Positions 1,286-17,712 of a stretch of 42,988 nt of DNA are shown piece after piece. Every line of letters starts with the position of its first letter. Positions within the stretch are counted from its first letter, which is position 1. Where the stretch lies: the IMG/VR virus record IMGVR_UViG_3300045988_130630, one strand, 5' to 3'. Both the position numbers and the translations under genes were made by a program. Under the pieces are notes generated by a model, which ran no database searches, was not told the origin of the DNA, and saw only the letters and a program-made list of their open reading frames with translations. This stretch comes from a virus.

Positions 1286-1561
1286 TTAAAATGCGTAAGC
1301 ATTAAATTTATACATATAGAACTCGCCATCCATAAGAAGAAGTCTATCAATCTCTTCTCGATGATCGATCTTCCACCAATCAGGAGCAGAAAGAGGAAGA
1401 TCGTAATACTCGATTCGCTGAGTTTCCATAATATCTTCTTCGATTGCGCCTTCGAGGAAAGCAAGATATAACTCTTCCGCTTCTGCCTCAGAGATGTTGG
1501 CGAATGTCCAAGACTTACCAGTCATTTCATCTTCGATTTTATAACAAGTAATTTCTTTCAT
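1286..1561 (-). CDS. hypothetical protein (91 aa)
   Basis: Supplied ORF track, standard genetic code; acidic small protein. Confidence 0.45.
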   Translation of the reverse strand: MKEITCYKIEDEMTGKSWTFANISEAEAEELYLAFLEGAIEEDIMETQRIEYYDLPLSAPDWWKIDHREEIDRLLLMDGEFYMYKFNAYAF

Positions 1562-1572
1562 AGTTATTCTCC

Positions 1573-1893
1573 TTACATTTCAACCGCATCAACGAAATCA
1601 ATGAAAACATCATTTGCGACCTCGTTCATCATATCGAGATAAGAAGAAAATCTCCTTGTCCATTCGCCGGTCATCTCACCGTGGTAAAGATACCAATCAT
1701 AATCGGAATCTTTCTGAATCATTTCGAACTGACGCTCCATAAGACTATCATCGACCATATCTCGACAATATTCCATAAACATTTCCTGCATATCAGCCTC
1801 GGACGCATTCAGGAAATAGAAATTATGGTCTCCGGCCGTATCACAAAGAATACCAATGGAATGAGTTTTAATCTTAGAATTAGAAGTAGTCAT
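1573..1893 (-). CDS. hypothetical protein (106 aa)
   Basis: Supplied ORF track; standard code. Confidence 0.45.
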   Translation of the reverse strand: MTTSNSKIKTHSIGILCDTAGDHNFYFLNASEADMQEMFMEYCRDMVDDSLMERQFEMIQKDSDYDWYLYHGEMTGEWTRRFSSYLDMMNEVANDVFIDFVDAVEM

Positions 1894-1961
1894 AATTTTT
1901 ATTTCCTTTCTTTCTTTACTTTATATATATATTATATATTATTTTTTATAAAAAATCAAAA

Positions 1962-1990
1962 AAGGATTTGCGGTTTGCGCAAATCCTTTA
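1962..1990. terminator. Perfect 9-bp hairpin GGATTTGCG/CGCAAATCC flanked by A and T tracts
   Basis: Inverted repeat read directly from the sequence, lying between convergently arranged gene ends. Confidence 0.5.
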
Positions 1991-1994
1991 AAGA

Positions 1995-2210
1995 TCAGAG
2001 AACGGGAGCATAATTATAATAAATAATCATATCTTCCAATGCATTTTTGTAAAGTCCTGTATCGAATTTATGACAATGGAATCGTTTCTCAACATTCTCT
2101 TCGATCGCGGACATAGCGATTTCAAGAGCGTTAGATCCACTTACATTTGTAGCGCAATAAATTTCATCACAAGGTGCGTCATAAACGAATAAGACAGGCA
2201 TATGTTTCAT
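1995..2210 (-). CDS. hypothetical protein (71 aa)
   Basis: Supplied ORF track; GGAGG ribosome-binding site upstream (plus-strand positions 2213-2222). Confidence 0.45.
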   Translation of the reverse strand: MKHMPVLFVYDAPCDEIYCATNVSGSNALEIAMSAIEENVEKRFHCHKFDTGLYKNALEDMIIYYNYAPVL

Positions 2211-2268
2211 ATATTATTCCTCCATTAATTGATTTTACCCAAAATTTTTGTTATAATATATTTAGAAA

Positions 2269-2514
2269 TTAAAAGATTTCAATCGCGTCTTCAAAAAGAT
2301 TGAGAAATTCATCAGCTACTTCGGAAGTCGCGAGAAGGCCGGTAGAAGAACCGCCATACCAATCAATATAGATGCGCGTGAGTGGACTACCGCCAGCTTC
2401 CGCAATCTCATCTGCATATTGCTTAGAATCAACCACGGTAAAGCTAACACTATTAATATTGTTAGTATTGATAAGATACTTAAAACCGCGGAAGTTGTGT
2501 AAAATTACAATCAT
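2269..2514 (-). CDS. hypothetical protein (81 aa)
   Basis: Supplied ORF track. Confidence 0.4.
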   Translation of the reverse strand: MIVILHNFRGFKYLINTNNINSVSFTVVDSKQYADEIAEAGGSPLTRIYIDWYGGSSTGLLATSEVADEFLNLFEDAIEIF

Positions 2515-2798
2515 CTAAATGCCTCCTCAGAAACAAAATTTTTGAGTTGTCTTATAACTCTCATGCCGTCAGGATCATTGTCGCTGAAAGTGTATTCGAA
2601 GTGAGATTTATCATTCATATAAAATTCAAGTTTTGTTCCTTGGGACTCGATAGAGATATTATTATCATCATCATTATCATTCATAGTGATACGATTAGCG
2701 AGAACCGCAATGATATCATTTGCATTAAGAAAAACGCGGTCGCCATTAGACATTTTTAAATAAATCAATTCACCTTTATTCATTTTACTTCTCCACAA
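2511..2798 (-). CDS. hypothetical protein (95 aa)
   Basis: Supplied ORF track; a 4-nt overlap with the downstream gene indicates translational coupling. Confidence 0.45.
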   Translation of the reverse strand: MWRSKMNKGELIYLKMSNGDRVFLNANDIIAVLANRITMNDNDDDNNISIESQGTKLEFYMNDKSHFEYTFSDNDPDGMRVIRQLKNFVSEEAFR

Positions 2799-3384
2799 TA
2801 TAGTCTTTCGCTACGTCTGTTCCTTCTGGAATATAAAGATAAACTCGTGCTGATTTAGAGCAGATAAAGAACCACTCTCTCCAATCACCATAACGCGGGA
2901 TACGCTTTTCAACGTGCGGAACCTGATTAGAGTAAACAACCACCGTGTCATTTGCCGGATAATTCTTAGTGCTTGTAATGCCATCAGCGCTAAGAGTAAG
3001 ATAAGTATAATAAATACTTTCACCTTCGAAGGCTCGGTAAGTATAGATACAGCCATCATCATCCATACTTGTTAGCTCTTGGGCTTCCGTAATTGTATAA
3101 TCATATTCGGAATAATCCTCTTTAACAGAAGACATCATAACTCCGCCGAACATACTTACGGCAAGATAAAGACAAACGCCGATCCAAAAGGCAGGAATAA
3201 TTTGACGGGGAATGTCAACGCGGTCGCGGTGAGACCAGTTGCGGAAGTGCTTGGCCTTAGGATCGGAAAGAGTGCTGTAATAGCCATAGCTACAATAGGC
3301 AGAATGAATGGCGAAAATCAGAAAAATAATTAAGGTCGGTAGAACAAATCCGCCCACCAGCGTTTTCAAGAAGAAGACAAACAT
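2785..3384 (-). CDS. membrane protein (199 aa; N-terminal and central transmembrane segments)
   Basis: Hydrophobic stretches in the supplied ORF translation. Confidence 0.5.
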   Translation of the reverse strand: MFVFFLKTLVGGFVLPTLIIFLIFAIHSAYCSYGYYSTLSDPKAKHFRNWSHRDRVDIPRQIIPAFWIGVCLYLAVSMFGGVMMSSVKEDYSEYDYTITEAQELTSMDDDGCIYTYRAFEGESIYYTYLTLSADGITSTKNYPANDTVVVYSNQVPHVEKRIPRYGDWREWFFICSKSARVYLYIPEGTDVAKDYIVEK

Positions 3385-3398
3385 ATTTAAAAACTCCT

Positions 3399-3848
3399 TT
3401 AAAGAATAGGTTTGAGGTTATCGCAGTAATTGAAATCTCTCATACAGCCATTTTCCTCAGTGAAACAAGAACAACCATTTTGGCAAGTTTTACGAACAAT
3501 GTCGGGATTACGGACATTCATAACGGCTTGCATATTTCCAACGATTTCTCGCTTTTGGACCATTTTCGGTGTGTCGGGAGAAGCATCAAACGCGCAGTTC
3601 ACATTTTGTTCACAATTTTGGCACGTGCCAAGTTTTGCCCAACATTTATCGCAATAAGTGTTGCCTTGATCGTCGATGATCATTTGCTTATGGAAAATTG
3701 GAGTATGACATGCTTTACAAGTGTAATATTCACCGCAAAGAAAATTATCGCAGATCGCATGATTTGGATCAATTGTGTTGCCTGTGATTTGACATAATCC
3801 GGTCGTTGGCCGGTAATAACCGCAGTTATTACAATAAAAAGTCATCAT
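3399..3848 (-). CDS. cysteine-rich protein with multiple CxxC pairs (149 aa), putative multi-Zn-ribbon protein
   Basis: About 24 Cys residues arranged in CxxC pairs in the ORF translation. Confidence 0.5.
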   Translation of the reverse strand: MMTFYCNNCGYYRPTTGLCQITGNTIDPNHAICDNFLCGEYYTCKACHTPIFHKQMIIDDQGNTYCDKCWAKLGTCQNCEQNVNCAFDASPDTPKMVQKREIVGNMQAVMNVRNPDIVRKTCQNGCSCFTEENGCMRDFNYCDNLKPIL

Positions 3849-4099
3849 AGCATTTTAGCAGAATATGGAGCATCTTCGTCGTCAAATTTTAGAATCTTAT
3901 CGGCGAGTTCGCGATTAACGCGCAAAGGACCATCGTTAAGAGGAGTAAATGCGACAGTGATAAGACCATCGAAGTATTCCTCGGCCCACTGACCGGCTCG
4001 CGCGAGATTTTCTGCGAAGATAAAACCGCACGAAAGTCTATCTATTTTATCGTCTTCATCCCAATAGCGCGCTTCATAATAAACGGGATACTGATCCAT
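3845..4099 (-). CDS. hypothetical protein (84 aa)
   Basis: Supplied ORF track; ATGA overlap with the upstream gene. Confidence 0.45.
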   Translation of the reverse strand: MDQYPVYYEARYWDEDDKIDRLSCGFIFAENLARAGQWAEEYFDGLITVAFTPLNDGPLRVNRELADKILKFDDEDAPYSAKML

Positions 4100-4115
4100 A
4101 TTTATTCTCCTTTCT

Positions 4116-4454
4116 TTAAGAAATTGTAGAGATTAAAAAGATCTCAGGGTCATCGAGCGTCTCGATGGGGATTTTGAGAAACTTTGCGTAAGCTTCCTTC
4201 ATTGTGTCATTAAGGCGATAATACTCTTGTGGAGCGATGAAGATATTGTCAATGCGGACGGCCTCTCCCGAGTCAGAAGCACCGAGAAGATAACCAAAGA
4301 TAGGGTTCTCATCGTCATCATAGTAGCTCGCGCGATGCCAATATCCTGCTTCGGTAAGCTGTTCGATAGCTTCAGCCATATTATCATAGTTCTCAAGAAG
4401 GTTCTTGGGGACTTTATAACCGCACACGAGTTTAGAACCAAAATCAACAGACAT
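4116..4454 (-). CDS. hypothetical protein (112 aa)
   Basis: Supplied ORF track. Confidence 0.45.
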   Translation of the reverse strand: MSVDFGSKLVCGYKVPKNLLENYDNMAEAIEQLTEAGYWHRASYYDDDENPIFGYLLGASDSGEAVRIDNIFIAPQEYYRLNDTMKEAYAKFLKIPIETLDDPEIFLISTIS

Positions 4455-4455
4455 A

Positions 4456-4653
4456 TTACTTGTCCTCCTTAAGAATAGAATTGATAAAAGTGCTATATTC
4501 AGTGGGTCTTACACAATACGCGGTTTTTGTTCCATTATCCCAAAAAACATATATAAGCTTGTTAGATTCAGAATTTTTTACGGCAATTGAATAAATATGA
4601 GTCGTATTAATGATATGAGTTTGACCTAAATAATCAATAAGCTTAGCAAGCAT
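4456..4653 (-). CDS. hypothetical protein (65 aa)
   Basis: Supplied ORF track; AAAGGTG ribosome-binding site upstream. Confidence 0.4.
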   Translation of the reverse strand: MLAKLIDYLGQTHIINTTHIYSIAVKNSESNKLIYVFWDNGTKTAYCVRPTEYSTFINSILKEDK

Positions 4654-4788
4654 TTTTTATCACCTTTAATAGTTTTTCTTTATTTTATATTTATATTATA
4701 TATTAAAATTTAATAAAAATCAATAAAGCGGTTTTGTCGCCTTAGGGTGGCGTAGAGACTGGATTCAATGATCGGCTTATCAAAAATG

Positions 4789-4895
4789 GTCATTTTAAAT
4801 GAAAATGGTCAAAATTTTCTGATAAATGGTCAAAAATTTCTATACTTTTGTCCGTTTTTTTCTATATTTCTGGTCAAAAATTTCTGATGAAGAGA
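4789..4895. repeat. Four direct repeats of about 15 bp, TGGTCAAAA(A)TTT(T)CT (iteron family 1)
   Basis: Read directly from the sequence. Confidence 0.6.
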
Positions 4896-4952
4896 TCGGA
4901 CAGCAAGTATAGAGGCGGATTAGGGCAAAGGAAACCGCATAGGTAAAAATTT

Positions 4953-5172
4953 TAGGTAATTTTTCATAGTTGCTTATAAAAATGTTAAATAAAATAGGTA
5001 ATTTTTCATAGTTGCTTATTTTTATATAGATGTCTAAATTTTAAACAAAATAGGTAAAAATTTTAGGTAATTTTTCATAGTTCCCTATTTTTATTTAGAA
5101 TTTGTAGGTAATTTTTAATAGTTAGCGATCGGTTTAGTTAGAATTTTTAAGAAATTTTTCATAGTTGCCTTT
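4953..5172. repeat. Five direct copies of the 23-bp iteron TAGGTAATTTTTCATAGTTGCTT (iteron family 2); three further copies lie at 5873-5961
   Basis: Copies begin at 4953, 4995, 5065, 5105 and 5150, with partial copies at 4940 and 5051. Downstream copies begin at 5873 and 5906, with a partial copy at 5939. Confidence 0.7.
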
Positions 5173-5246
5173 AAAAATATACTTTGGGTAAAAATTGTTA
5201 AAATTACTATTTTAGATTTGAAGTATATATGAAGGAGGTGGAAGCA

Positions 5247-5879
5247 TTGTCAGTAGAGTAGAAAAGATTTCCTGCTAATGTAGATATGAATATATTAACT
5301 TTTTTAAATAATAAGAAAATAAATGGTGAATTATATGCTTATTTATAGAGTTTATCTGAATATAATGTTATTAGTAAATAGCATAATATTTATAAAACTT
5401 ATGTATTGAAAAAATGGTTGCCAATTCAAAGTAAGATGTGTCAAATGCTTGGTATTAAAAGCCCTAAAACATTAAAAACGCATTTGAATTATTTAATTGA
5501 ACAAGGGTATATTATAGAAGAAGAAGATAGATATATATTACCTGAAATGGAAAATATATATTTTCTTATTCCACTACATACATTAAGATATATAAATGAT
5601 AACTGTAAAGAACATATTATAAAGATATATATTTATTTAGGATAGCGTTATAAATATGCATTAAATAATGGAAGTTAGTATGAATTTACATTAGAGGAAA
5701 TTGGAGAACATAGTGGTATAAAAGTAAAGAATAACAGCAGGGGCTATGAGATTATTAATAATGCTTTAACATTTTTATAGAATTCAGAATTAATTGATTA
5801 TGTTAGTTTTTTTGATGGGCAGATGCAGAAAAAGAAATTAACAAAATTTAGTTTTGAATATAAAAATTAGAATAGGTAA
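5247..5879 (+). CDS. TAG-recoded winged-helix DNA-binding protein, putative replication initiator or origin-binding protein (about 210 aa)
   Basis: TTG start 5 nt after GAAGGAGGTGGA. The frame is open to a TAA at 5877 only if 7 TAGs are read through. The translation contains ..KSPKTLKTHLNYLIEQGYIIEEEDRYILPE.. (a winged helix-turn-helix). The gene is flanked on both sides by the 23-bp iterons. Confidence 0.5.
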
Positions 5880-5992
5880 TTTTTAATAGTTGCCGATGAG
5901 CATTTTAGGTAATTTTTCATAGATGCTTCGACTTAAATTAGGTAAAAAATCATAGATTATCTAAGTAATAAGTAGAGGGTGTTTTCTAAGTA

Positions 5993-6044
5993 GTTTGTAT
6001 GATACAAACGATCGGCATCCGCCTCACTTTGTATCATACAAACG
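5993..6044. terminator. Perfect 17-bp inverted repeat (GTTTGTATGATACAAAC ... GTTTGTATCATACAAAC) with an 18-nt loop, followed by TTTGATTTTT; terminator or operator
   Basis: Read directly; each arm is itself nearly palindromic. Confidence 0.5.
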
Positions 6045-6080
6045 TTTGATTTTTAGATGAAAAGAAAGGTGATAAATAAA

Positions 6081-6365
6081 ATGGTTAATGAAGAAAGAAG
6101 AATAAATTCTTTAGATTATGCTATGTATGAATTTTTAGATCAAATAGGTAAAACAGATTTAGCAAAAGATTTATTAGAAGGGGTTATTTAGTATTATTAT
6201 GAGAGTAATTATTATGGAGATAATGAATTTGTAAAAGAATATTTAAAATGGTTTAGTTAGGGATATTTAGATAGAATAATTAAAGAAAATTATATGGAAT
6301 TAATGATAGATGAAAGTTAGAAAGATATTCGTGAAAAATATAAAGAAGAATTAGATTTAAATTAA
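6081..6365 (+). CDS. TAG-recoded hypothetical protein (94 aa, 3 TAGs)
   Basis: AAAGGTG ribosome-binding site; frame open from the ATG at 6081 to a TAA at 6363 with TAG read through. Confidence 0.5.
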
Positions 6366-6415
6366 AAATATTATTATTGGTAAATTATATCTTAGAGTAA
6401 AAGGAGTAAAAGGTA

Positions 6416-6730
6416 ATGATATATGAAAATATAAGAGGAGGAAAGGGAAATCCTTCAATAGTAAAATTTATGAGAGGAACGCAAGAATAGTTTGATAAGA
6501 TGGATAAAACAAATATGGTAAAACCTGATTTATATTTAAAAGATGACACTATTTATTTTGTTATTCCAGATAATACAAAACCAATTAAGGTAAAGTATGA
6601 TGATAGAAAAGTAGAATGGAATGAATCAGGAGTAGGAAGTTTAGTTAAAAATAATGATAGACCTGAATCAATAGAAGAAAATCCATTTTTACAAGAGTCA
6701 ATTAACTCGGATACTACGTATCCTCGTTGA
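6416..6730 (+). CDS. TAG-recoded hypothetical protein (104 aa, 1 TAG); C-terminus ..SDTTYPR
   Basis: AAAGGAG ribosome-binding site; the ATG at 6416 is in frame with track ORF 6500-6730 through one TAG. Confidence 0.5.
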
Positions 6731-6919
6731 TAAGGGTATTATTGACTTCGGGCATAAATGCCCTCGTTGATAAGGGCTCTACTTGATTTATAATAAATAA
6801 TATATTATAATATATATAATAAAAGAAAAAATGAAATGAAAAATAATACCCCGTAGGCAGGGAGGATCGTAGATCCGAGTCGCCTGCCCGCGTGGCGAAC
6901 GCAAAATGAAAGTAAGGAT

Positions 6920-7309
6920 TTGAAGATTGAAATGAAATTTACAACTGAAGAATTAAAGAAGAATAATGGAGAAAAGGTAGGCGTCTTCCGCAATTGGAAT
7001 GTAATCGCAACTACTAAGAAAGAGTTCTTTAATAGAGAGAATACGCAAGGCGCATACCTTATCTGGGACGACTGCAATAAGTTGGTTTTTAATGGTAAGG
7101 TTGTTGGTCGAATTACCGAGCAAGGTAAGGTGAATTATATCGAGAATGAATATAGATATGTGAAGCCGGTTCTGGAAACTTCGGGCACAAGTGCCCTCGT
7201 TGATAGGGTTGCTCCTGGATCAGAAGATGTGGATCTTAGTAAGCGCACGCTTGCTGATGACATTCTTGATAGTGCGTTTAAAATAAAGTTGGAGGAGCTT
7301 TTAGTGTAA
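6920..7309 (+). CDS. hypothetical protein (129 aa, standard code) carried inside the insertion
   Basis: Supplied ORF track; weak ribosome-binding site; contains an internal repeat copy. Confidence 0.35.
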   Translation: MKIEMKFTTEELKKNNGEKVGVFRNWNVIATTKKEFFNRENTQGAYLIWDDCNKLVFNGKVVGRITEQGKVNYIENEYRYVKPVLETSGTSALVDRVAPGSEDVDLSKRTLADDILDSAFKIKLEELLV

Positions 7310-7596: not shown

Positions 7597-7634
7597 AAAA
7601 AAAAGAGAGACTTTTTTTAGTCTCTCTTTTTTCA
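7597..7634. terminator. Bidirectional rho-independent terminator (AGAGAGAC/GTCTCTCT hairpin flanked by A8 and T7 runs)
   Basis: Read directly. Confidence 0.6.
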
Positions 7635-7699
7635 TATTAGGCAATTCTTGGTGAAATTGTCAATTCTTAGGATGAAATATACCCCACCTGAATAAGTTT

Positions 7700-8077
7700 T
7701 CACTTGTTAATGAAAGTATTCAAAAAATCGGCAATTACATCATCGTCAGTTCTCTTAACCTTCTTAACCTTTACCTTCTCACTCTTGGGAAAAAGCACAT
7801 CAAGAAGATCGTTAACCCCGGTCATAAGACCATAAACCTCAGCAAAGATATTCTCCACATCGGACGCGGTCAACTCAGAATCCTTGTGGCCATTAAGAGC
7901 GGCATACTCGTTAATCCGATCGGCGATTTCCTGCGCGAGCGCGGTCTTCCGATCGGCCTGCTTGGACTCCTTCTCCACCTGCGCGACCGCAGCGTTCAGA
8001 GACTTAGCCATTTCGTCCGCAATAGCCTGAGCGTCCTCACCATTCTTCAGACGAGCAATAATATCATTCATATCCAT
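7700..8077 (-). CDS. hypothetical protein (125 aa)
   Basis: Supplied ORF track. Its promoter is at 8109-8137. Confidence 0.55.
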   Translation of the reverse strand: MDMNDIIARLKNGEDAQAIADEMAKSLNAAVAQVEKESKQADRKTALAQEIADRINEYAALNGHKDSELTASDVENIFAEVYGLMTGVNDLLDVLFPKSEKVKVKKVKRTDDDVIADFLNTFINK

Positions 8078-8108
8078 ATGAATACCTCTTTTCTTATTTT
8101 CTATATAT

Positions 8109-8137
8109 ATTATATACTATTTTTTTAAAATTGTCAA
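8109..8137 (-). promoter_or_regulatory. sigma70-type promoter (TTGACA, 17-bp spacer, TATAAT) for gene 7700-8077
   Basis: Reverse-complement of 8109-8137 reads TTGACAattttaaaaaaatagtaTATAAT. Confidence 0.55.
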
Positions 8138-8239
8138 GATTTTTTTAAATGAAAACATACGCGTGAAACAATGTAAGGGCGAAGCAATTTTTAATTAATC
8201 ATAAAGGCATATGATCCTACGCGGGCTTAAAAAAGTCTT

Positions 8240-8590
8240 TTTTTATCATTATAACATATTTTTTATAAAAAGTCAATTTTCGGGATTTTTTTGGGCCATA
8301 TGGAGAGGTGCTAGAAGTACGAAAAATTTTGCATATGGGTATACCGATCGGGAAATCGGCCCGCGACGTTCCACCGCGGGCCGGCCAAATAGACTGAGCA
8401 TTCCGGGATTTTAGTCTGAGTCTATTTTAAACACTTTTTTCGCACAAAATTTGCTAAACCTATAATTATTCCGAAATTCCGCCCGGAGCGTCAGTGATCG
8501 GGCGGTCCATTATACCACATTTTCCGATCGGTGTCAATAGGTAAAATGCACAAAAAAAATCAGCAGGTTTTAGTCAACCTGCTGATTGAA
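8240..8590. ncRNA. Non-coding structured region with two GC palindromes (8358-8382, 8479-8505), an imperfect hairpin (8391-8430), a minus-strand promoter (8509-8538) and a terminator (8559-8586); one copy of the convergent-promoter module family
   Basis: No ORF with a ribosome-binding site is present. The palindromes GGCCCGCG..CGCGGGCC and CCGCCCG..CGGGCGG were read directly. Confidence 0.35.
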
Positions 8591-8593
8591 TAT

Positions 8594-9010
8594 TTATGCA
8601 AGAAATGCGTTTACAATTTCATCGAACACCGTGGGGTTAATGTCCACGTTAAAAAAGCGGTCGTTCTTGCGGAACGCTTTGGGGTAGCGTCTAATCAGTT
8701 CCGCACGCAACGCGCTTTCCGCACCCTCGGCGGGATAGTCCCCGCAAGAACGGATTCGATGAATTTCAACGCGCGTGATAGCATACTTTTTTGCATACTC
8801 GCCGATTTCATCACGCAAACGCCCTACAACATCTTTTGCGGAAGTGCCTACTTTGTTAAATTCAAGTTCGTCGTTGTGGTAAAACTTGAAAAAGTAAACC
8901 GCTTGTTCATTTTTCAGATTCTCGCCACAATCAGGCATGAATTCCATAGAAACGGGCGGTCTACCGTCCTTAAATCGGCGTAGCTTAATAGTAATTTCTT
9001 CCATTGGCAC
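8594..9010 (-). CDS. T5orf172 / GIY-YIG-like domain protein (about 137 aa)
   Basis: Contains AVYFFKFYHNDELEFNKVGTSAKDVVGRLRDE, matching the [YF]-h-x-K-h-G-x-T...RL..L core of the T5orf172 family. AGAGAGGA ribosome-binding site. Start is either the ATG at 9004 or the GTG at 9010. Confidence 0.45.
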   Translation of the reverse strand: MPMEEITIKLRRFKDGRPPVSMEFMPDCGENLKNEQAVYFFKFYHNDELEFNKVGTSAKDVVGRLRDEIGEYAKKYAITRVEIHRIRSCGDYPAEGAESALRAELIRRYPKAFRKNDRFFNVDINPTVFDEIVNAFLA

Positions 9011-9025
9011 AAAATCCTCTCTGTT

Positions 9026-9054
9026 GATTGAGGTTTACCATCGTTCTCTCAACC
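9026..9054 (-). promoter_or_regulatory. Conserved 29-bp 5'-leader element GGTTGAGAGAACGATGGTAAACCTCAATC (hairpin GGUUGAG/CUCAAUC), copy 1; copy 2 at 12272-12300
   Basis: The identical 29-mer lies between the promoter and the ribosome-binding site of two different genes (8594-9010 and 11470-12246). Confidence 0.5.
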
Positions 9055-9084
9055 ATTATTTTTTGCACTTTTTGACTTGTTTTG

Positions 9085-9120
9085 GGGTGAAAAACCGCAT
9101 TTTTCAGCGGTTTTTCACCC
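9085..9120. terminator. Terminator with a perfect 14-bp stem (GGGTGAAAAACCGC / GCGGTTTTTCACCC)
   Basis: Read directly. Confidence 0.6.
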
Positions 9121-9127
9121 TTTTTCG

Positions 9128-9535
9128 TCAGTTTTTGGGCTTTCGCTTCTGAATCAGGGTCAATTCGTAGTCATTTTCGCCCACATGGAACGCAATCATG
9201 CGCTCCACATTCGTAATTTCCACGTTTTCGCACGCATTTTCGCTGTTTTCACGCAAAAAAGTAGCGAGTTCCGCGATAATCGAGCGTTTTGTGGGGTTTT
9301 CCTTGCGCTGTCGCTTTTCAAACTTATAAGCGGTCGGCGCTTTGCGTGTTCCGGTCTTAGAATACTTGTTAGCTTCTTTGAGCTTTTCTGCGGACAGGTC
9401 AAAGTCCTTGGCAATTCCATGGTCAATGTCATCATCGTCCATGAGAATTTCTTTTGCTTCCTCGGCAGTACAATCCAACTTTTTCATCAGATTGTCAATC
9501 TTTGCCTGAAAGTCCTTTTCACTCATTTTAGGCAT
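9128..9535 (-). CDS. hypothetical protein (135 aa)
   Basis: Supplied ORF track; AAGGGGG ribosome-binding site; promoter at 9560-9589 (TTGACA, 18-bp spacer, TATAAT). Confidence 0.55.
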   Translation of the reverse strand: MPKMSEKDFQAKIDNLMKKLDCTAEEAKEILMDDDDIDHGIAKDFDLSAEKLKEANKYSKTGTRKAPTAYKFEKRQRKENPTKRSIIAELATFLRENSENACENVEITNVERMIAFHVGENDYELTLIQKRKPKN

Positions 9536-9599
9536 TTTCTTTGCCCCCTTTCAAGTATGATTATAACACCGCCGTTAGCAAATGTCAAGAGAAATTTTT

Positions 9600-9630
9600 G
9601 GGAGCGCCTGATTTTTTTCAGGCGCTCCCC
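9600..9630. terminator. Terminator hairpin GGGAGCGCCTGA / TCAGGCGCTCCC
   Basis: Read directly. Confidence 0.6.
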
Positions 9631-9635
9631 CTGAA

Positions 9636-10013
9636 TCAGTGGGCGAGACGGAAGTAGGACTTGCGCTTGTCCACAATCTTCTCGACGCCGTTCGCTTCAA
9701 TCATCTGACGCAGAAGAGCGGAAACGCGCTGATTGGTGAGGTCGCCCAGACCGTCCACGTTCTTGATGAGTTCGGTCACGGTATACAGCTTGTCAGGATT
9801 CGCGGACAGCTCGGCAAAGATAATGTCCTTGTAGCCGTCGTTGGCAATCTGATTCGCGGTCGGCTTCTTGTCACCGGCGTTCTTGCGGGACAGCAGGTCG
9901 ATTTCGTGGTTGATAAACTCAACCATAGCAGGGTCAGCCTGAACCTCGGACAGTTTGAGCAGAGCCTCGAAACGGTCGCGCTTGGTGAGCTTCTTAACAG
10001 TAGAAGTAGACAT
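9636..10013 (-). CDS. hypothetical protein (125 aa), paralog of 12389-12769
   Basis: About 70% identical to the product of 12389-12769. Both share the identical ribosome-binding-site context AAAGGAATTGATACTATGG and the same promoter type. Confidence 0.6.
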   Translation of the reverse strand: MSTSTVKKLTKRDRFEALLKLSEVQADPAMVEFINHEIDLLSRKNAGDKKPTANQIANDGYKDIIFAELSANPDKLYTVTELIKNVDGLGDLTNQRVSALLRQMIEANGVEKIVDKRKSYFRLAH

Positions 10014-10019
10014 AGTATC

Positions 10020-10700
10020 AATTCCTTTCTTTGGCGGTAGGTCGCTACCCTTTTGATATTATTGAGTATACCACACTTTGGAGTGCTTGTCAAGAGGTTT
10101 CGCAAACTTTTCACACGAATTACTACCCCGACCTGACGGATAATTTATTGTTTGTTGATTCAATCTATTTGTCAGCGGAAAACCGCGTCAAGGATAGTTG
10201 GTTCAATCAAACTCACTTTCGCGTTCAACGTTTGGCTTTACAACGTGGTGTATTCTGTTTACTTCCTATACTTTCTCAAGGTCGCGCGCCCTCGGATTTC
10301 TTGGGCTACTCCCTCTCGACATTTTCTATTGTAGCACACTCGCTGGGATTTGTCAAGAGGTTTTCAAGAAAAAACTCATGAATTTTTTCTTTTATCCCGT
10401 GCGTTCCGCTCCGAAGAGACCTTAACGTAATAGGCGAACGGTCTATTGCTACTTCCAACCGTAGCCCCACACCGACCTGTGGCTCAGGGGTTCCCCTCTT
10501 GACATTATTTATTGTAGCACTTTTCGCACTACTTGTCAAGAGGGAATTTCAAATTTCTTTGAAAACGGGTCAGTTACCGAGTTATCACACCCATCAGCGA
10601 AGCCGTTCGGCAATTCACTGTTCCCTCTTGACATTATCCATTATAGCAGATTGCCCATAGATTACAATTGACAAAATAACCAAATTACGGGAAAAAATTT
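10020..10700 (-). promoter_or_regulatory. Tandem array of four sigma70-type promoters (-35 hexamers at about 10085, 10360, 10525 and 10660 in plus-strand coordinates) with no convincing downstream ORF; three place ATGTC(A/G)AGAGGG 2-5 nt after the -10
   Basis: Reverse-complement reads CCTCTTGACA, 17 bp, TACAAT, then aaATAATGTCAAGAGGG. Repeated three times; the first copy drives gene 9636-10013. Confidence 0.45.
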
Positions 10701-10725
10701 TCTTCATTTTTGTGCAACTTTTCTC

Positions 10726-10754
10726 TTGACAAAATTGGCGGGGCGTGGTATAAT
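10726..10754 (+). promoter_or_regulatory. Plus-strand sigma70-type promoter (TTGACA, 17-bp spacer, TGGTATAAT) of module B, firing into the GC palindrome at 10764-10788
   Basis: Read directly. Confidence 0.5.
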
Positions 10755-10792
10755 GGTGAATTCGGCCCGCTTTGGGCGTTGGCGGGCCGGCC

Positions 10793-10821
10793 ATTTTATC
10801 ACAAAAATCCGCGTTTGTCAA
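10793..10821 (-). promoter_or_regulatory. Minus-strand promoter (TTGACA, 17-bp spacer, TAAAAT) of module B, convergent with the plus-strand promoter
   Basis: Reverse-complement reads TTGACAaacgcggatttttgtgaTAAAAT. Confidence 0.45.
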
Positions 10822-10835
10822 TAGACAAAATAGAC

Positions 10836-10870
10836 AAAAAAAACTACCCATTTTTGGGTAGTTTTTTTAT
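10836..10870. terminator. Bidirectional terminator (CTACCCA/TGGGTAG hairpin with A8 and T7 flanks)
   Basis: Read directly. Confidence 0.6.
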
Positions 10871-11116
10871 TCAATCCAAAAGGTTAATCTCGCCGGGAAT
10901 TTTGAAAGAATCAGCGTCCAGCGTGGAATTGTAGTCCTCGGTAAAGAGTTCAATCATTCCACATTCCATGATGTAATTCTGCACCGCCCGCTGAACATTT
11001 CTCCAAAGGTCAGTCTTTCGGCTTTCCTCACGGGCTTTTCTGGCTTCCTGTATCTGGATAATGAGTTCGTCCAGTTCCTCGTCGGTCATGTAATTAAAAT
11101 TCAAATCCATTTTCAA
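10871..11116 (-). CDS. hypothetical protein (81 aa)
   Basis: Supplied ORF track; ATGA overlap with the upstream gene. Confidence 0.5.
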   Translation of the reverse strand: MKMDLNFNYMTDEELDELIIQIQEARKAREESRKTDLWRNVQRAVQNYIMECGMIELFTEDYNSTLDADSFKIPGEINLLD

Positions 11117-11391
11117 AACTCCCTTTTAATTGCTTTTTCCCACACTTCACGACCGAATTTTCTCTCGCGGTCTAACTTCTTGCCAATGTCTTTTGCGGTC
11201 AGCAGGTCAAGCTCGTCCGCAATCTCGGCTTCAAAGTTTACCCAAAAGTCGTAGGTCTTGATGATGAAAACTTCATCGGCTTCAAAGACGCCGCCGCACT
11301 CGGCGCAGATAATATAGTCATGGTCGATTAAAATGCCCATGTGAGGGTCATTGTCATCAGGGACTACAAAAAGAACTTGTTTAGCGTTCAT
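11113..11391 (-). CDS. hypothetical protein (about 92 aa; start MNAKQVLF, with CxxC)
   Basis: AAAGAGG ribosome-binding site before the ATG at 11391; consensus promoter at 11421-11449. Confidence 0.5.
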   Translation of the reverse strand: MNAKQVLFVVPDDNDPHMGILIDHDYIICAECGGVFEADEVFIIKTYDFWVNFEAEIADELDLLTAKDIGKKLDRERKFGREVWEKAIKREF

Positions 11392-11420
11392 GTGAAACAC
11401 CTCTTTCATTTGATATATTG

Positions 11421-11449
11421 ATTATACCATAGGGAATAGGACTTGTCAA
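11421..11449 (-). promoter_or_regulatory. Consensus sigma70-type promoter with extended -10 (TTGACA, 17-bp spacer, TGGTATAAT)
   Basis: Reverse-complement reads cTTGACAagtcctattccctaTGgTATAAT. Confidence 0.6.
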
Positions 11450-11469
11450 GCCCTATTCCCTATTTTTTT

Positions 11470-12246
11470 TTAGCTCATGTTTACAACGGGATTTTCCTTA
11501 ATGTTTCGCATGAGCGCGCGCTGAAACTCGGTCGGCTTGGGGCGTTCCACCGTGGGAGCTTTGAAAAGGGATTTTTCCATGGGTTTGTGCTGTCGGACGC
11601 AATAGCGCAGAATCTCAACTTCAATGAGAACATCTTCAAGTCCCGTATGCGATTCATCAAAACTGTCCTCGCCGCTGATAAAGCGGTAGAGAATTTCTGC
11701 GGTAAAGCGGAGCTGTCCGTTCTTGGTCTTGTAGCCGTTCTTTTCGCAATAGTCGCGGTAAGTGGGCATCTGACCGATAACCTGTCGCGCCATTTTCAAG
11801 GTGTCCCAGATTTCAAGGTCATAGGGGAAGAAATAACGATACTTGCTTTTCGTGTCCCATCTTTGCGCATTGTTGCAGGCGTTCAAGTCGAACCGCATAT
11901 TATGAGCGCAGACAAAAGAGCAGTTATAACGCTCGACACATTCGCAGAACGCCTGACGAATTTCGTAAAGGTCAGCCATAATGCGCGAACCATTCTTAAT
12001 GTCCTCAATGTAGCGAGGAATCTTGTCGGCGTAGTATGCGGACTGCATGAGGTCGCGCTCGTAGCAGAAAATGTCGCGATTCACAAAGGAATAAGTTTCA
12101 TAAACATTTCCCTTGGAATCAATGACCGCCCAGCCGAAGTCGTAGGGAAGTACATTTGACATATCCAGCTTATCGCCGTCCTGAATGGTGTTTGCGGTTT
12201 CCGTGTCCAGCATAATGCCGTAGTTTTTGCGCCTATCAATACCCAT
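11470..12246 (-). CDS. DEDDh-family (DnaQ-like) 3'-5' exonuclease (258 aa)
   Basis: Exo I motif MLDTETAN, Exo II CAHNMRFDLN and Exo III HTGLEDV. AGGAGACG ribosome-binding site. Promoter TTGACA, 17-bp spacer, TGcTATACT at about 12305-12335. Confidence 0.6.
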   Translation of the reverse strand: MGIDRRKNYGIMLDTETANTIQDGDKLDMSNVLPYDFGWAVIDSKGNVYETYSFVNRDIFCYERDLMQSAYYADKIPRYIEDIKNGSRIMADLYEIRQAFCECVERYNCSFVCAHNMRFDLNACNNAQRWDTKSKYRYFFPYDLEIWDTLKMARQVIGQMPTYRDYCEKNGYKTKNGQLRFTAEILYRFISGEDSFDESHTGLEDVLIEVEILRYCVRQHKPMEKSLFKAPTVERPKPTEFQRALMRNIKENPVVNMS

Positions 12247-12350
12247 CTTATCGTCTCCTATTGGAAAAGTAGATTGAGGTTTACCATCGTTCTCTCAACC
12301 TCTGATAATAGTATAGCACTTTGCTATTGGTTTGTCAACAGTTTTTTTGT

Positions 12351-12380
12351 AGGGCAGGGGATTTTTTTTATCCCCTGCCC
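12351..12380. terminator. Terminator (GGGCAGGGGA / TCCCCTGCCC hairpin around a T8 run)
   Basis: Read directly. Confidence 0.6.
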
Positions 12381-12388
12381 TTTTCCCT

Positions 12389-12769
12389 TTACGCGAGGGA
12401 GAAGTAGGACTTGCGCTTGTCAACCGTCTTGACAACGGTGTTGGCTTCAATCATCTGACGCAGAAGAGCGGAAACGCGCTGATTGGTATACTCCGCGAGT
12501 TCGGGAACGGTCTTGATGAGGTCGGTCACGGTATACAGCTTGTCAGGGTTCGCGGTCATCTCGTCCAGAATGACCTGCTTCACAGCGTCATTCTCCATCT
12601 GCTTGGCCGTGGGCTTCTTGTCGCCCGCGTTCTTCTTGGCGAGCAGTTCAATCTCATGCTCGATGAACGCCACCATATCAGGATTTGCCTGAACCTCATT
12701 CATTTTGAGCAGAGCCTCGAAACGGTCGCGCTTGGTGAGCTTCTTAGTAGTAGAAGTAGAAGTAGCCAT
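12389..12769 (-). CDS. hypothetical protein (126 aa), paralog of 9636-10013
   Basis: See the paralog at 9636-10013. Promoter at about 12825-12855 (TTGACA, 17-bp spacer, TATAAT). Confidence 0.6.
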   Translation of the reverse strand: MATSTSTTKKLTKRDRFEALLKMNEVQANPDMVAFIEHEIELLAKKNAGDKKPTAKQMENDAVKQVILDEMTANPDKLYTVTDLIKTVPELAEYTNQRVSALLRQMIEANTVVKTVDKRKSYFSLA

Positions 12770-13274
12770 AGTATCAATTCCTTTCTGGTTTTTAAGACTG
12801 TCCTTGTCTTTGATGTAGTTATTATATCATAGGCGGAGCAGGTTGTCAATAGTTTTTACAAATTTTTTTTTAGGGGCGGTCGCGAGGTTTATTACTATAC
12901 ATCTTGTTTATGCCTACCTTTATCTATACTCTTAAACCAATTCAATTTACTAAGCCATTAGTTTTTAAGGCGGTGGGCGAGCATTAGAAGTCATCTTGTT
13001 TTTACCTCTCTCATTTGATGTATTCATTATACCATAGGTCGAGCGGTTTGTCAAGGGGTTTTTCAAACTTTTTTTGAAAGTTTGTTCGGCACGCCACGCT
13101 TGGAACATTCCTTGTGTCGGCTTCTGGTATGATGGTCAAAGGAACTGCCTTTCCGTAGGTCTTACTCTTTCCTCCTGACATTATGTAGTATAGCAGATTG
13201 GAACTGATTTGTCTATTAACGAAATAACCAAATTACGGGAAAAAATAAAATTGAAATTTGTGCGAAATTTCTCT

Positions 13275-13302
13275 TGACAAAAATGCTGGCAGGGTGTATA
13301 AT
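13275..13302 (+). promoter_or_regulatory. Plus-strand promoter (TTGACA, 16-bp spacer, TATAAT) of module C, firing into the palindrome CCGGCCG..CGGCCGG (13311-13337)
   Basis: Read directly. Confidence 0.5.
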
Positions 13303-13340
13303 GGTAAATTCCGGCCGTAGCGCGCGGAAACGGCCGGCCA

Positions 13341-13369
13341 ATTATATCACATTTAAGGAACTTTGTCAA
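13341..13369 (-). promoter_or_regulatory. Minus-strand promoter (TTGACA, 17-bp spacer, TATAAT) of module C
   Basis: Reverse-complement reads ctaTTGACAaagttccttaaatgtgaTATAAT. Confidence 0.5.
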
Positions 13370-13382
13370 TAGTCAAAGTAAA

Positions 13383-13420
13383 CAAAAAAAATCTCCCCGT
13401 TTTGGGGAGATTTTCTTTTA
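13383..13420. terminator. Bidirectional terminator (ATCTCCCCG/CGGGGAGAT hairpin with A8 and T-rich flanks)
   Basis: Read directly. Confidence 0.6.
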
Positions 13421-13675
13421 GCCAATTACATTGACTTCGGTTTTGACAGGCGTCACCATCTTGTCGCGCGAGAACTCGCGAACCTGACCCGTTTCAAGAT
13501 TCACCGCGTAGCAATACTGCGAACCTCTCGACCGGACAAACGGCGTGTTGTTGTTGCTGTCAATTTTGAGATACATTCCCATACCGCTACCGTTGGAGCG
13601 CAGAGTGGTGAACGTGCCACCGCTGAGAATGTTAATAATTTGGAGCTGACCCTTAGTGCCAAAATTTACTTTCAT
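13418..13675 (-). CDS. hypothetical protein (85 aa)
   Basis: Supplied ORF track; GGAGAAA ribosome-binding site. Confidence 0.5.
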   Translation of the reverse strand: MKVNFGTKGQLQIINILSGGTFTTLRSNGSGMGMYLKIDSNNNTPFVRSRGSQYCYAVNLETGQVREFSRDKMVTPVKTEVNVIG

Positions 13676-13849
13676 TTTTATTTCTCCTCTCTTAAAGCAG
13701 ATGGGTATTAACCCATTCTGCGGTCACAAGTCCGATTTCCTTAGAGACAACCGTTTCATAGCGGTAATTACCGCCATCAGTTCGTCCGGTCACTTTGGCG
13801 AGAACGCCAAGTGTCAACCAAAAATAAGGCATCATTTTTTTACCCCCTA

Positions 13850-14050
13850 TTACTTACTGCTCGGAAAGATAGCGCCCAGAAGTGCGAGGATAATCCAAAC
13901 CACGAGCGCCAGCTTCCACGAGAACACGATAACAAAAGTGCCGATTGCGGTGATACCGAGGGCGGGAAGAAGCCAGCAGAGAAGCCAGACAAGGCCCGAA
14001 GTAGCAAGGAACGAAAACGCGAGAGACAGCAGAATCAAAAGAACAAACAT
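13850..14050 (-). CDS. small membrane protein with two transmembrane helices (about 66 aa)
   Basis: Start taken at the third Met (MFVLLILLS), which has an AAAGGGGAAAA ribosome-binding site. Promoter at about 14075-14110. Confidence 0.5.
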   Translation of the reverse strand: MFVLLILLSLAFSFLATSGLVWLLCWLLPALGITAIGTFVIVFSWKLALVVWIILALLGAIFPSSK

Positions 14051-14104
14051 TTTATTTTCCCCTTTCATTTGATACATTTATTATACCATTGGAGTAGGGC
14101 TTTG

Positions 14105-14605
14105 TCAAGCCCTTTTCTCCAAAAGTTCCGAAAGTTTTTCGATAATGTTTACTGCGGTCGGGTCAATGGTTTCACCCAAGTGCCAACCATTCCGAACCTT
14201 TTCATTATCGTCAACCAAGATGGACACGTCATAGCGGTCGCGCACGCTGTCGGCCTTAGTCGCGCCATACTGGACGCCGTGAAAGTGGTCATAGTGGAAG
14301 CCCTGTTCTTCAAGCCACGCGCGCTTTGCTTCACGCACGAGGTTTTTGTATTCCTCGCTCGAATCTTTGGAAAGCCAAGTGATGATGTTGATTTCCCAGC
14401 CCTCGGCGCGGAGAAGTTCGCAAACCTCATTCAGTTCAGCCATATTGCACATGGGAACAGCAGTTCGATAGGGCTTAGGATTTTCCGAACGGAGAAGTGC
14501 AAGCCAATCCTTGACGCCGTAGAGGTCAGCAATAGTGCCGTCCATGTCAAAGTTGATGGAACGTCGAGTGGCCACAACGTGGGACTTGATGTAAGTGATT
14601 TTCAT
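14105..14605 (-). CDS. HAD-superfamily 5'(3')-deoxyribonucleotidase-like phosphatase (166 aa)
   Basis: N-terminal FDMDGTIAD (the DxDGT nucleophile motif) and later DD motifs, as in NT5C-type deoxynucleotidases. Confidence 0.55.
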   Translation of the reverse strand: MKITYIKSHVVATRRSINFDMDGTIADLYGVKDWLALLRSENPKPYRTAVPMCNMAELNEVCELLRAEGWEINIITWLSKDSSEEYKNLVREAKRAWLEEQGFHYDHFHGVQYGATKADSVRDRYDVSILVDDNEKVRNGWHLGETIDPTAVNIIEKLSELLEKRA

Positions 14606-14673
14606 AGGTATTACCCCTTTCCTTTACTGTATCTGTATTATACCATACATCTGCGCGGTTGTCAAGAGAAATT

Positions 14674-14964
14674 TTAGCAATTTCCCGCTTTATTTATCCA
14701 TTCTTTCCATTTATCTTTGGCAAACTTTTTATATTCTTCTTGCCAAATACCACCTGCAATGGCTTCTTTTACTGCGTCATCAATAGAAAGATATTGGTTG
14801 GGAAAAACAAAGTCATCACAAAAGAACCGAGTTCGACCAAAGAATTTGCGGTTAGGGCGGATAACTTCATCAACAGAGATATAGATTAGCCCATATGATT
14901 CATCGTTGTATACCTTAGCCTCAAAGGTTCTTCCCTCATATTCATAAGTTTTCGGCTTACTCAT
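14674..14964 (-). CDS. hypothetical protein (96 aa)
   Basis: Supplied ORF track; promoter at about 14990-15025. Confidence 0.5.
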   Translation of the reverse strand: MSKPKTYEYEGRTFEAKVYNDESYGLIYISVDEVIRPNRKFFGRTRFFCDDFVFPNQYLSIDDAVKEAIAGGIWQEEYKKFAKDKWKEWINKAGNC

Positions 14965-15051
14965 AGCGTTTGTCCTCCTTTACTATGCTTGTATTATACC
15001 ACTATTGGATTTGCTTGTCAAGTGTTTTTTTCAAAATTTTCGCGGTCTTTC

Positions 15052-15237
15052 TCAATACACGAAAGATAAGAAATTAAGCAAAATCAGCACAGGAATAGCG
15101 TAGACGATATTGAAAGAGTCCCACCCGAGACTTTCACAGGAATAGGCAAAAATAAAGCCAAAAACGAGGCCGAAAATGCCGATTAAAATAATCATTCTAA
15201 ATCCTCCATATGACCGTAGTGTTCGTTGATATGCCAT
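15052..15237 (-). CDS. small membrane protein (61 aa)
   Basis: Supplied ORF track; hydrophobic sequence. Confidence 0.45.
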   Translation of the reverse strand: MAYQRTLRSYGGFRMIILIGIFGLVFGFIFAYSCESLGWDSFNIVYAIPVLILLNFLSFVY

Positions 15238-15455
15238 TCAAGATAGGTATTAGTCGCAATCTGAATTTCTCTATCTAACCAGTCGTAAAAGTCCTCGGGG
15301 TCGCGGGCCATGCGTTCGTCAATAATATCAGCAAGAGAAACGCGATGGGCGATAAACTCTGAAATATCAAGAGAATCCATAGAAGAAAGAAGTTCTTCCA
15401 CACACTCTTCGCGAGTGGAGAACTTTTCAGTAGAAAAATCGTGAGTGTAATACAT
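15192..15455 (-). CDS. hypothetical acidic protein (about 88 aa, start MYYTHDF)
   Basis: The track ORF 15192-15641 was truncated to the Met that has a ribosome-binding site (AAAGGGGATACAAACAATG). Its upstream part runs across repeat module D. Confidence 0.45.
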   Translation of the reverse strand: MYYTHDFSTEKFSTREECVEELLSSMDSLDISEFIAHRVSLADIIDERMARDPEDFYDWLDREIQIATNTYLEWHINEHYGHMEDLE

Positions 15456-15574
15456 TGTTTGTATCCCCTTTCCTTTACGGTAATTATAGTATAGCAGATT
15501 ATTACATTCTTGTCTATTGGTAAAATAACCAAATTCGGGAAAATAATTAGTTAGACTTTTGGTTAAATTTCCTA

Positions 15575-15603
15575 TTGACAAATTGCTGGGATGGTGGTAT
15601 AAT
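15575..15603 (+). promoter_or_regulatory. Plus-strand promoter (TTGACA, 17-bp spacer, TGGTATAAT) of module D, firing into the palindrome at 15611-15637
   Basis: Read directly. Confidence 0.5.
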
Positions 15604-15639
15604 TGGAATTCCGGCCGTGGCATGCGCAAACGGCCGGCC

Positions 15640-15669
15640 ATTTTATCACACTATTGGGTTTTTGTCAAT
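15640..15669 (-). promoter_or_regulatory. Minus-strand promoter (TTGACA / TAAAAT) of module D
   Basis: Read directly. Confidence 0.45.
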
Positions 15670-15686
15670 AGGCAAAATAAATAAAA

Positions 15687-15720
15687 TTTTGAGACGAGAT
15701 TTGGTTATCTCGTCTCAAAA
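15687..15720. terminator. Bidirectional terminator (GAGACGAGAT/ATCTCGTCTC)
   Basis: Read directly. Confidence 0.6.
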
Positions 15721-15725
15721 TATTT

Positions 15726-16178: not shown

Positions 16179-16242
16179 TTTAATTTTCCCCTTTCACTTG
16201 ATACGTTAAGTATAGCAGAACAAAAGGCTTTTGTCAAGTCCT

Positions 16243-16961: not shown

Positions 16962-17176
16962 CCTTTCCTTTTTCTATTATAATAATATCATAATATAATA
17001 GAAATGTCAATAGAGAGTTTTTAATTTACTCTTTTAATTTTTCTAATAGGTCATCAGCACAGTCATAGCTGATGCCTCTGCGGTCGCATTGGTCAGACAA
17101 AGGGCAACAAGCGCAGTCATTAAAGGTTTCCGTCCAAGCGCGCAACCAGTCAATCAAGCGCAAGACGTTAACTTCC

Positions 17177-17700: not shown

Positions 17701-17712
17701 TAGTGAAAGTAA

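Follow-up and report, generated by a model that had tools for sequence, protein, structure and literature searches.

The 42,988-base IMG/VR virus record IMGVR_UViG_3300045988_130630 (hereafter the window, meaning this whole stretch) comes from a phage with in-frame TAG codons, in which TAG is a sense codon. Between positions 4787 and 6043 it holds a gene for a 210-residue protein with two predicted winged-helix domains, bracketed by arrays of direct repeats and followed by a short conserved motif and a long hairpin (Table 1). A first-pass annotation, made from the sequence alone, had proposed a replication origin at this place.

Repeat arrays around a TAG-recoded gene

With stops limited to TAA and TGA, long genes appear in the window at 261–1190 (− strand), at 5247–5879 (+) and from 27,293 onwards (+). 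The second of these is the gene between the repeats: its TTG start follows 8 nt after a GGAGG at 5234–5238, and it contains seven in-frame TAG codons, in agreement with its earlier description as a recoded gene whose stop overlaps a downstream repeat. At the conserved TAG positions (residues 34 and 133), 21 relatives hold only TAG, CAA or CAG, which indicates that TAG is read as glutamine.

We searched all 42,988 bases for the 23-mer TAGGTAATTTTTCATAGTTGCTT with up to three mismatches, and found matches at 4953, 4995, 5064, 5148, 5873 and 5906, all on the + strand, with none elsewhere in the window and none expected by chance. A search with the 17-nt core adds one copy, at 5105, and the last copy downstream, TAGGTAAAAAATCATAGATTATC, is a diverged A-run variant of which close relatives preserve nearly every letter. 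The five upstream and three downstream copies of the first-pass annotation are therefore borne out. From one full upstream copy to the next the distances are 42, 69, 41 and 43 bp, and these copies are accompanied by half-sites that had been missed before, namely TAGGTAAAAATTT at 4940–4952 and 5051–5063 and GGGTAAAAA at 5186. The repeat unit is not palindromic, and the repeats overlap the coding sequence by no more than the 7 nt at the stop codon. The surroundings are as AT-rich as had been stated, with a G+C (GC) fraction of 0.23–0.25 over 4500–6500 against 0.40–0.48 in the flanks.

Further upstream lies a second repeat family. Four copies had been reported, which is roughly right, although the array actually consists of three good copies (0.4 expected by chance) and two degenerate ones, at about 4787 and 4848, with a period of 21–23 bp.

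In the interval from the last upstream repeat to the ribosome-binding site, TGTTAAAAT is likely to be an extended −10 element, judging from its letters; it is not among the promoters listed by a promoter scan. Most close relatives carry an inverted half-site pair, GGTAAAA-N8-TTTTACC, in this interval (nine upstream regions aligned), the right arm of which has decayed in the window. Placed over the likely −10, the half-site pair is a probable site of self-repression.

Directly 3′ of the last downstream repeat, AT-rich DNA contains CTAAGTA(A/G)T twice; there are three copies in the window, against 0.5 expected. These are followed by an inverted repeat, which had been recognised before as perfect, although its arms measure 16 bp rather than the 17 bp then given. 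The arms of the hairpin are AT-rich and each nearly palindromic, the 19-nt loop is GC-rich, a T-rich stretch follows, and the z-score is −2.8. An ordinary intrinsic terminator is unlikely here, given the AT-rich stem and 19-nt GC-rich loop, whereas the other hairpins of the window have GC-rich stems and loops of mostly 3–9 nt. A search of Rfam with the hairpin returned nothing above noise.

Table 1 Coordinates of the features at the repeat-flanked locus
Feature	Position	Strand	Details
Second repeat family, TGGTCAAAA(A)TTTCT	4787–4887	+	good copies 4806–4820, 4827–4841, 4871–4885
Upstream array of the main repeat	4940–5172	+	full copies 4953–4975, 4995–5017, 5064–5086, 5105–5127, 5148–5170
Promoter-adjacent element	5186–5210	+	GGGTAAAAA 5186–5194, TGTTAAAAT (likely extended −10) 5196–5204, then TTAC
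Gene for the 210-residue protein (two predicted winged helices)	5247–5879	+	TTG start; TAA stop 5877–5879 inside the first downstream repeat
Downstream array of the main repeat	5873–5961	+	copies 5873–5895, 5906–5928, 5939–5961; 33 bp apart
CTAAGTA(A/G)T, two copies	5961–5995	+	at 5961 and 5986; AT-rich DNA directly 3′ of the last repeat
Long hairpin (inverted repeat)	5993–6043	+	arms 5993–6008 and 6028–6043; 16 bp, perfect

Relatives of the locus and of its protein

The same flanking layout recurs at 21 IMG/VR loci (43–72% protein identity) and in the loci L001–L007. Relatives have 3–5 repeats 80–420 bp upstream of the gene and 2–3 tandem repeats that begin at the stop codon or just past it, all oriented with the gene and spaced 41–43 bp upstream and 22–24 or 33 bp downstream, near whole helical turns. 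One half of the repeat, with GG(T/G)AA and an A/T-run, is constant, and the other half is specific to the lineage and has been switched jointly in every copy of a locus. Examples of this joint change are TTTGGATAG (L010), GTGCTAGTAT (L017) and ATCTACCA (L018), and the lineage repeats include TAGGTAATTTTGGATAG (L010), GGTAAAAATTCTAC (L014), GGTAAAAAGTGCTAGTAT (L017), GGGAAAAAAATCTACCA (L018) and GGTAAAAATGTATAG (L028). Repeats that vary with the protein are the pattern that would be expected if site and protein evolved as a pair. The second family of the window (TGGTCAAAAATTTCT) resembles main repeats found elsewhere, such as GGTAAAAATTCTA (L014, L015), GGTAAAAATTCTAC in L014 and GGTAAAAAATCTA (L015), and copies like it occur in L001 and L008, with none in L005. 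To judge from this resemblance, the second family may have been left behind by a protein of the same type or give such a protein a second specificity.

Across the whole of IMG/VR, clusters of the exact 17-mer are confined to three contigs of 181–201 kb, with a single stretch in each, which argues that the sites act locally and not as a genome-wide regulon. In one contig, L049 (IMGVR_UViG_3300045988_110853, 196,076 bp), exact 17-mers at 1322–2291 have spacings of 42, 69 and 842 bp, the same as those between the window copies at 4953, 4995, 5064 and 5906; L049 is probably the same phage as the window or a very close relative.

Two further elements lie past the stop codon. CTAA(A/G)TA(A/G)T, often doubled, is found no more than 220 nt from the stop in 19 of 26 loci (expected by chance: at most 0.15) and is invariant even in relatives of ~25% protein identity with quite different repeats; on this pattern, we regard it as a candidate DNA-unwinding or factor-binding element. 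An equivalent hairpin lies 100–135 nt past the stop, with an inverted-repeat score of at least 14 in 16 of 20 lineages, while shuffled sequences score at most 13. The stems are unrelated in sequence between lineages yet still complementary, that is, they covary, and many of the loops contain TTCGCTTCGCTC; the loop in the window differs from this type. Such TTCGCTTCGCTC loops are seen in L010 (3752–3793), L012 (3735–3793), L020 (3746–3793), L021 (3748–3792), L023 (3724–3764) and L028 (3741–3787), among others. Only sometimes does a T-run follow the equivalent hairpins in relatives.

More distant relatives delimit what belongs to the module. The downstream array is the part common to the whole protein family, with three tandem repeats of 22–24 bp past the stop in distant relatives. 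One of these is the rat-gut plasmid pRGI00117 (L035, HG796263.1), a circle of 7,167 bp whose family member (hhalign 99.9%, E 1e-31) is followed by three 23-bp tandem repeats. The Rep_3 and winged-helix modules of this plasmid occupy 1186–2099 and 5963–6699, which makes it a natural test case for an initiator as against an accessory role. In the temperate phage L036 (18-kb contig, relatives up to ~24 kb), the gene lies between the integrase/switch (lysogeny) region and the terminase, and three 23-bp repeats follow it, then CTAAATAGT twice, with no upstream array. In the 24.9-kb phage L039, the gene is directly 3′ of a gene that matches a replication-initiation or DnaD-like family of PHROGs (7e-20) and is not homologous to our family; repeats and the CTAAnTAAT motif follow the family gene, and no upstream array stands out. 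The large phages L037 and L038 carry it as a lone rightward gene in a leftward block with genes for gyrase, RNase H, PhoH and RNA ligase. From these neighbourhoods, the core shared across the family is the gene, three ~23-bp tandem repeats and CTAAnTAAT; the upstream array and the hairpin were seen in large-phage relatives only.

Homologues of the protein number 382 in a large protein collection and 573 cluster representatives (clusters at 50% identity) in an exhaustive search, and this family of at least 573 representatives is without functional annotation. It is widespread in uncultured TAG-recoded gut phages; searches with blastn and tblastn against cultured phages, using the window protein and three relatives, found nothing. 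The diversity of the family was profiled with 86 relatives, for which the 25 most frequent Pfam families were listed: HTH_36 is matched by 33 of the 86, a Crp-type HTH by 18, DUF6945 by 15 and Rep3_N by seven, the last below the cut-off (best E 1.3e-4; P0250 at 21.4 bits against a cut-off of 22.4, the only score seen). As a positive control, the Rep protein of pRGI00117 matches Rep3_N and Rep3_C at 1.6e-33 and 1.8e-17. Among PHROGs, 51 of the 86 match phrog_3396, which is labelled ScpB, and 4–11 members weakly match each of several replication-initiation or DnaD-like-loader families. The ScpB label probably reflects a common two-winged-helix fold; Pfam ScpB is not among the families listed, and neither ScpA nor SMC occurs among the Pfam assignments of neighbouring genes.

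A confident AlphaFold2 model of the window protein (predicted local distance difference test score, pLDDT, 87.6; predicted template modelling score, pTM, 0.82) consists of N-terminal strands and two winged-helix domains. A Foldseek search of the model against the PDB gave no significant match. The best fold matches of this model appear to be initiators proven to bind iterons. BFVD, a collection of viral structure predictions, also yields named matches, most of them to initiators of replication or organisers of the replisome. In the predicted structure, the N-terminal domain resembles that of RepA_N, a winged helix with DnaD-type extensions.

A candidate iteron-type origin and its alternatives

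The locus is best read as an iteron-type origin whose initiator would be a new protein of two winged helices, similar to RepA_N and DnaD, and we consider this reading somewhat more probable than its negation. It draws on the repeats, their conservation, the covariation of protein and repeat, the single locus per genome, the similarity in fold and the neighbourhoods. Several phased, replicon-specific direct repeats of about 17–23 bp stand beside the gene, as iterons do, and small phages have the gene within their replication module or next to it. Half-sites paired over the promoter can be likened to the operators of RepE, RepA and pi. Also in favour are the constant AT-rich motif and the hairpin next to the repeats, and the weak matches of family members to HTH_36, Rep3_N and PHROG families of replication initiation. 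The origin with iterons and a Rep- or DnaD-like winged helix, as first proposed, emerged as the best of the readings tested, but its rolling-circle version had to be dropped, since no nuclease-type family was matched and the predicted fold is that of two winged helices.

If this reading holds, the locus would be a self-contained replication-origin cassette of a TAG-recoded Firmicutes phage. The 210-residue protein would be its site-specific origin-binding initiator, with an N-terminal domain like those of RepA_N and DnaD and a second winged helix, and one molecule would cover each asymmetric ~23-bp site, one domain contacting the constant half (GGTAA and the A/T-run) and the other the lineage-variable half. 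The three phased sites past the stop, the constant CTAAGTAAT elements and the long hairpin would form the origin core, where the DNA would open and host or phage replication proteins would be loaded. Repression of the gene would fall to the half-sites paired over the likely −10 together with the five upstream copies, and these sites may also pair with the downstream array, as do the iteron sets flanking P1 repA and F repE.

Comparison with known systems shows which of these features are familiar. Among RepA_N initiators, we considered RepA of the staphylococcal plasmids pSK41 and pTZ2162 and RepA of the Vibrio cholerae satellite PLE, the N-terminal domain of which is PDB chain 4ro3. Where RepA_N proteins have a host-specific C-terminal domain, the C-terminal half of the window protein is predicted to be a second winged helix, and where their repeats lie inside rep and are semi-palindromic around a poly-A tract, those of the window lie around the gene and are not semi-palindromic. 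RepA_N itself (PF06970) does not figure in the Pfam results for the window protein or in the list of the 25 most frequent families drawn up for the 86 relatives.

The layout recalls P1 and F, in which iteron sets flank the rep gene on both sides. Compared with Rep_3 iteron replicons (R6K pi, F RepE, pPS10 RepA and the P1/F layout), however, the window protein has no Rep3_N match, the upstream sites are 41–69 bp apart rather than contiguous, the locus is without DnaA boxes, and the element is a phage of ~190 kb and not a plasmid. With lambda O at ori-lambda, SPP1 G38P and the DnaD-like replisome organisers, the locus would share a small, putatively site-specific DNA-binding protein near its own repeats. 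In ori-lambda, iterons, AT-rich DNA and a palindrome follow one another in that order, which the order in the window recalls. A minority of family members have weak O-like and DnaD-like PHROG matches (E 1e-4 to 1e-7). Differences from these phage systems are that the window repeats lie outside the coding sequence, that the protein lacks a DnaD or DnaB_2 C-terminal domain and that the large phages have no adjacent helicase-loader gene.

A number of observations weigh against an origin. Cumulative GC skew and searches with Rep profiles had both been suggested as checks, and neither came out in its favour. There is no skew step at the locus, the skew follows the direction of transcription with the cumulative minimum of the window near 27,000, and when coding-strand skew is taken gene by gene, the two sides of the locus show no consistent difference in the window, L005 and L001. 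None of the Rep profiles tested on the window protein reached its curated cut-off: those of Rep3_N and Rep3_C (PF01051, PF21205) were not attained, and the protein has no Rep3 match of any kind. Its best Pfam matches, HTH_36 (E 0.0055) and LexA_DNA_bind, are to general winged-helix families and fall short of the cut-offs, and profile searches of the PDB yield winged helices of the transcription-regulator type. No DnaA box (TTATCCACA, at most one mismatch) lies between 2798 and 7850, although not all iteron origins have them, and in the large phages there is no helicase, primase or loader gene within 10 kb.

To these come two points about the role and timing of the protein. The plasmid pRGI00117 also contains an entire Rep_3 gene and, with it, a separate set of three 22-bp iterons, and in L039 the initiator-like gene adjoins the module; with a second and better-supported initiator in each, the protein could be an accessory factor rather than the initiator. 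Furthermore, the TAG density of the gene equals that of late genes, while neighbouring leftward genes have none, so its translation would have to wait until TAG is decoded as glutamine, a delay not expected of an initiator that acts first.

A bolder form of the origin reading, which we put forward tentatively and think doubtful as it stands, is that the gene, the three repeats, CTAAnTAAT and the covarying hairpin form a portable origin cassette of an undescribed kind, which would move among ~190-kb TAG-recoded phages, 18–25 kb phages and small plasmids. As carried by the large phages, the module is an AT-rich insert that opposes its neighbours and sits beside genes that vary between relatives. 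The constant motif and the hairpin with its TTCGCTTCGCTC loop would then be a new DNA-opening or primosome-loading signal recognised by a conserved factor of the host, and diversification of repeats and protein would give each replicon its specificity.

Several of the unfavourable observations would suit a transcription factor that regulates itself and takes no direct part in replication, an explanation that we nevertheless judge unlikely. Its upstream array would control its own promoter, and the downstream array would close a repression loop or block read-through into the next genes. DeoR, MarR, Crp, LexA and GntR winged-helix profiles match the protein as well as or better than Rep profiles do, half-sites overlap the likely −10, pRGI00117 and L039 have other initiators, and a skew signal is missing. 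Such a regulator would, however, have its own gene as its only target, since the sites are absent elsewhere in the window and in the ~200-kb relatives. Moreover, the part of the module kept throughout the family is the array past the stop and not an operator at the promoter, as the upstream regions of L036 and L039 illustrate; asymmetric, phased direct repeats are atypical of dimeric repressors; and the closest folds to the predicted model seem to be those of initiators. A dispersed promoter family was rejected, as the window has no copies outside the locus, not even where the late operon begins near 27,000, and each large relative has exact copies in a single stretch.

The location of the plasmid module raises the question of partition. 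In pRGI00117, the 7-kb plasmid's module adjoins a complete Rep_3 replicon, the usual place for stability functions, and a centromere-like array bound by a winged-helix protein, of the TubR–tubC or StbA–stbDR type, would ensure stable inheritance of an episomal phage or plasmid. Direct-repeat arrays around an autoregulated gene are typical of centromeres, the PDB profile matches include TubR (E 0.0011) and AspA, and the ScpB label of most profiled relatives points the same way. No gene for a partition nucleoside triphosphatase (NTPase) is adjacent in any neighbourhood examined, and we consider a partition or segregation element improbable. Finally, a polar barrier to replication forks or transcription, formed by an autoregulated winged-helix protein on oriented sites like RTP at Ter in B. 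subtilis, would agree with the single orientation of all sites, with an island transcribed against its neighbours and with RTP being a winged-helix protein whose sites lie beside its own autoregulated gene, but strikes us as very improbable.

As an iteron-type origin, the locus would belong to a familiar kind of system, repeats with a winged-helix initiator, and what is new is a protein family that no curated Rep model recognises. The placing of arrays both before and after the gene is also unusual, as are the constant motif and the covarying hairpin. To our knowledge, TAG-recoded gut phages of ~190 kb have never been cultured, and we know of no origin or initiator for them. A cassette of cis-acting site and protein would offer a concrete target for replication assays, a marker for replication activity in metagenome coverage and possibly a vector part for gut Firmicutes, and the family would link initiators of the RepA_N/DnaD type with two-winged-helix, Rep_3-like ones. 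The TAG-filled gene also bears on how recoding times phage functions: should its product be the initiator, the site could not start replication before TAG is decoded as glutamine.

Genome setting and further observations

Contigs with close relatives of the 210-residue gene measure 150–201 kb, and the window is therefore a fragment of a genome of roughly 190 kb. The products of its right-hand block are a phage sigma factor, the large terminase, a portal protein and capsid-type proteins. The terminase is closest to those of SPbeta-like Bacillus phages, Enterococcus phages VRE9_4 and H1, Geobacillus phage E3 and the gut phage Phass-1, which, along with GGAGG ribosome-binding sites, points to a Firmicutes host. 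The window has no transfer RNA (tRNA) genes and hence no suppressor tRNA gene.

The locus had been placed at the junction between leftward and rightward genes, which is wrong in detail. The 5247 gene is the first of a rightward island of four (5247–7309) within a long run of small leftward genes, and the large junction lies near 27,000–27,300. Island genes 2 and 3 (6057–6365 and 6416–6730) have no counterparts in relatives, and the product of gene 4 (6836–7309) has ~30% identity to a 121-residue protein of L001 and L008; the other genes past the hairpin are not conserved. Between 7,700 and 27,000, where the window has few long open reading frames, relatives have a corresponding block of small leftward genes.

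Two classes of gene can be told apart. The rightward genes and 261–1190 are AT-rich (GC 0.23–0.36) with many in-frame TAG codons, and the small leftward genes (1286–4653 and 7700–27000) have a GC fraction of 0.40–0.48, with TAG in none of those translated. The gene at 261–1190 (−), at the left end of the leftward block, encodes an HNH or homing-type endonuclease (phrog_374, E 4.6e-61) and has nine in-frame TAG codons. The rightward structural block opens with the sigma-factor gene at 27293–28348 (+; phrog_5767, E 9e-55), whose product has a C-terminal zinc-ribbon or HNH-like tail; the 23-mer is absent nearby.

Short words are also unevenly distributed. GATC is nearly missing from 10000–26000, a stretch of 16 kb with ~3 sites; the first 10 kb of the window contain 37 and the final 16 kb ~30. 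The cause may be that a restriction system is avoided, or that the leftward block has had a history of its own. On the + strand, the repeat locus itself contains GATCGG four times (4770, 4894, 5127 and 6010). The palindrome CCGATCGG has all of its copies in the window within 1 kb, at 7541, 7916, 7949, 8344 and 8524. Across the leftward block, from 7599 to 23419, there are many long two-way hairpins of the terminator type, each with an A-run, a GC-rich stem and a T-run, for example at 9085–9120, 15686–15721, 19828–19865, 22401–22451 and 23379–23419.

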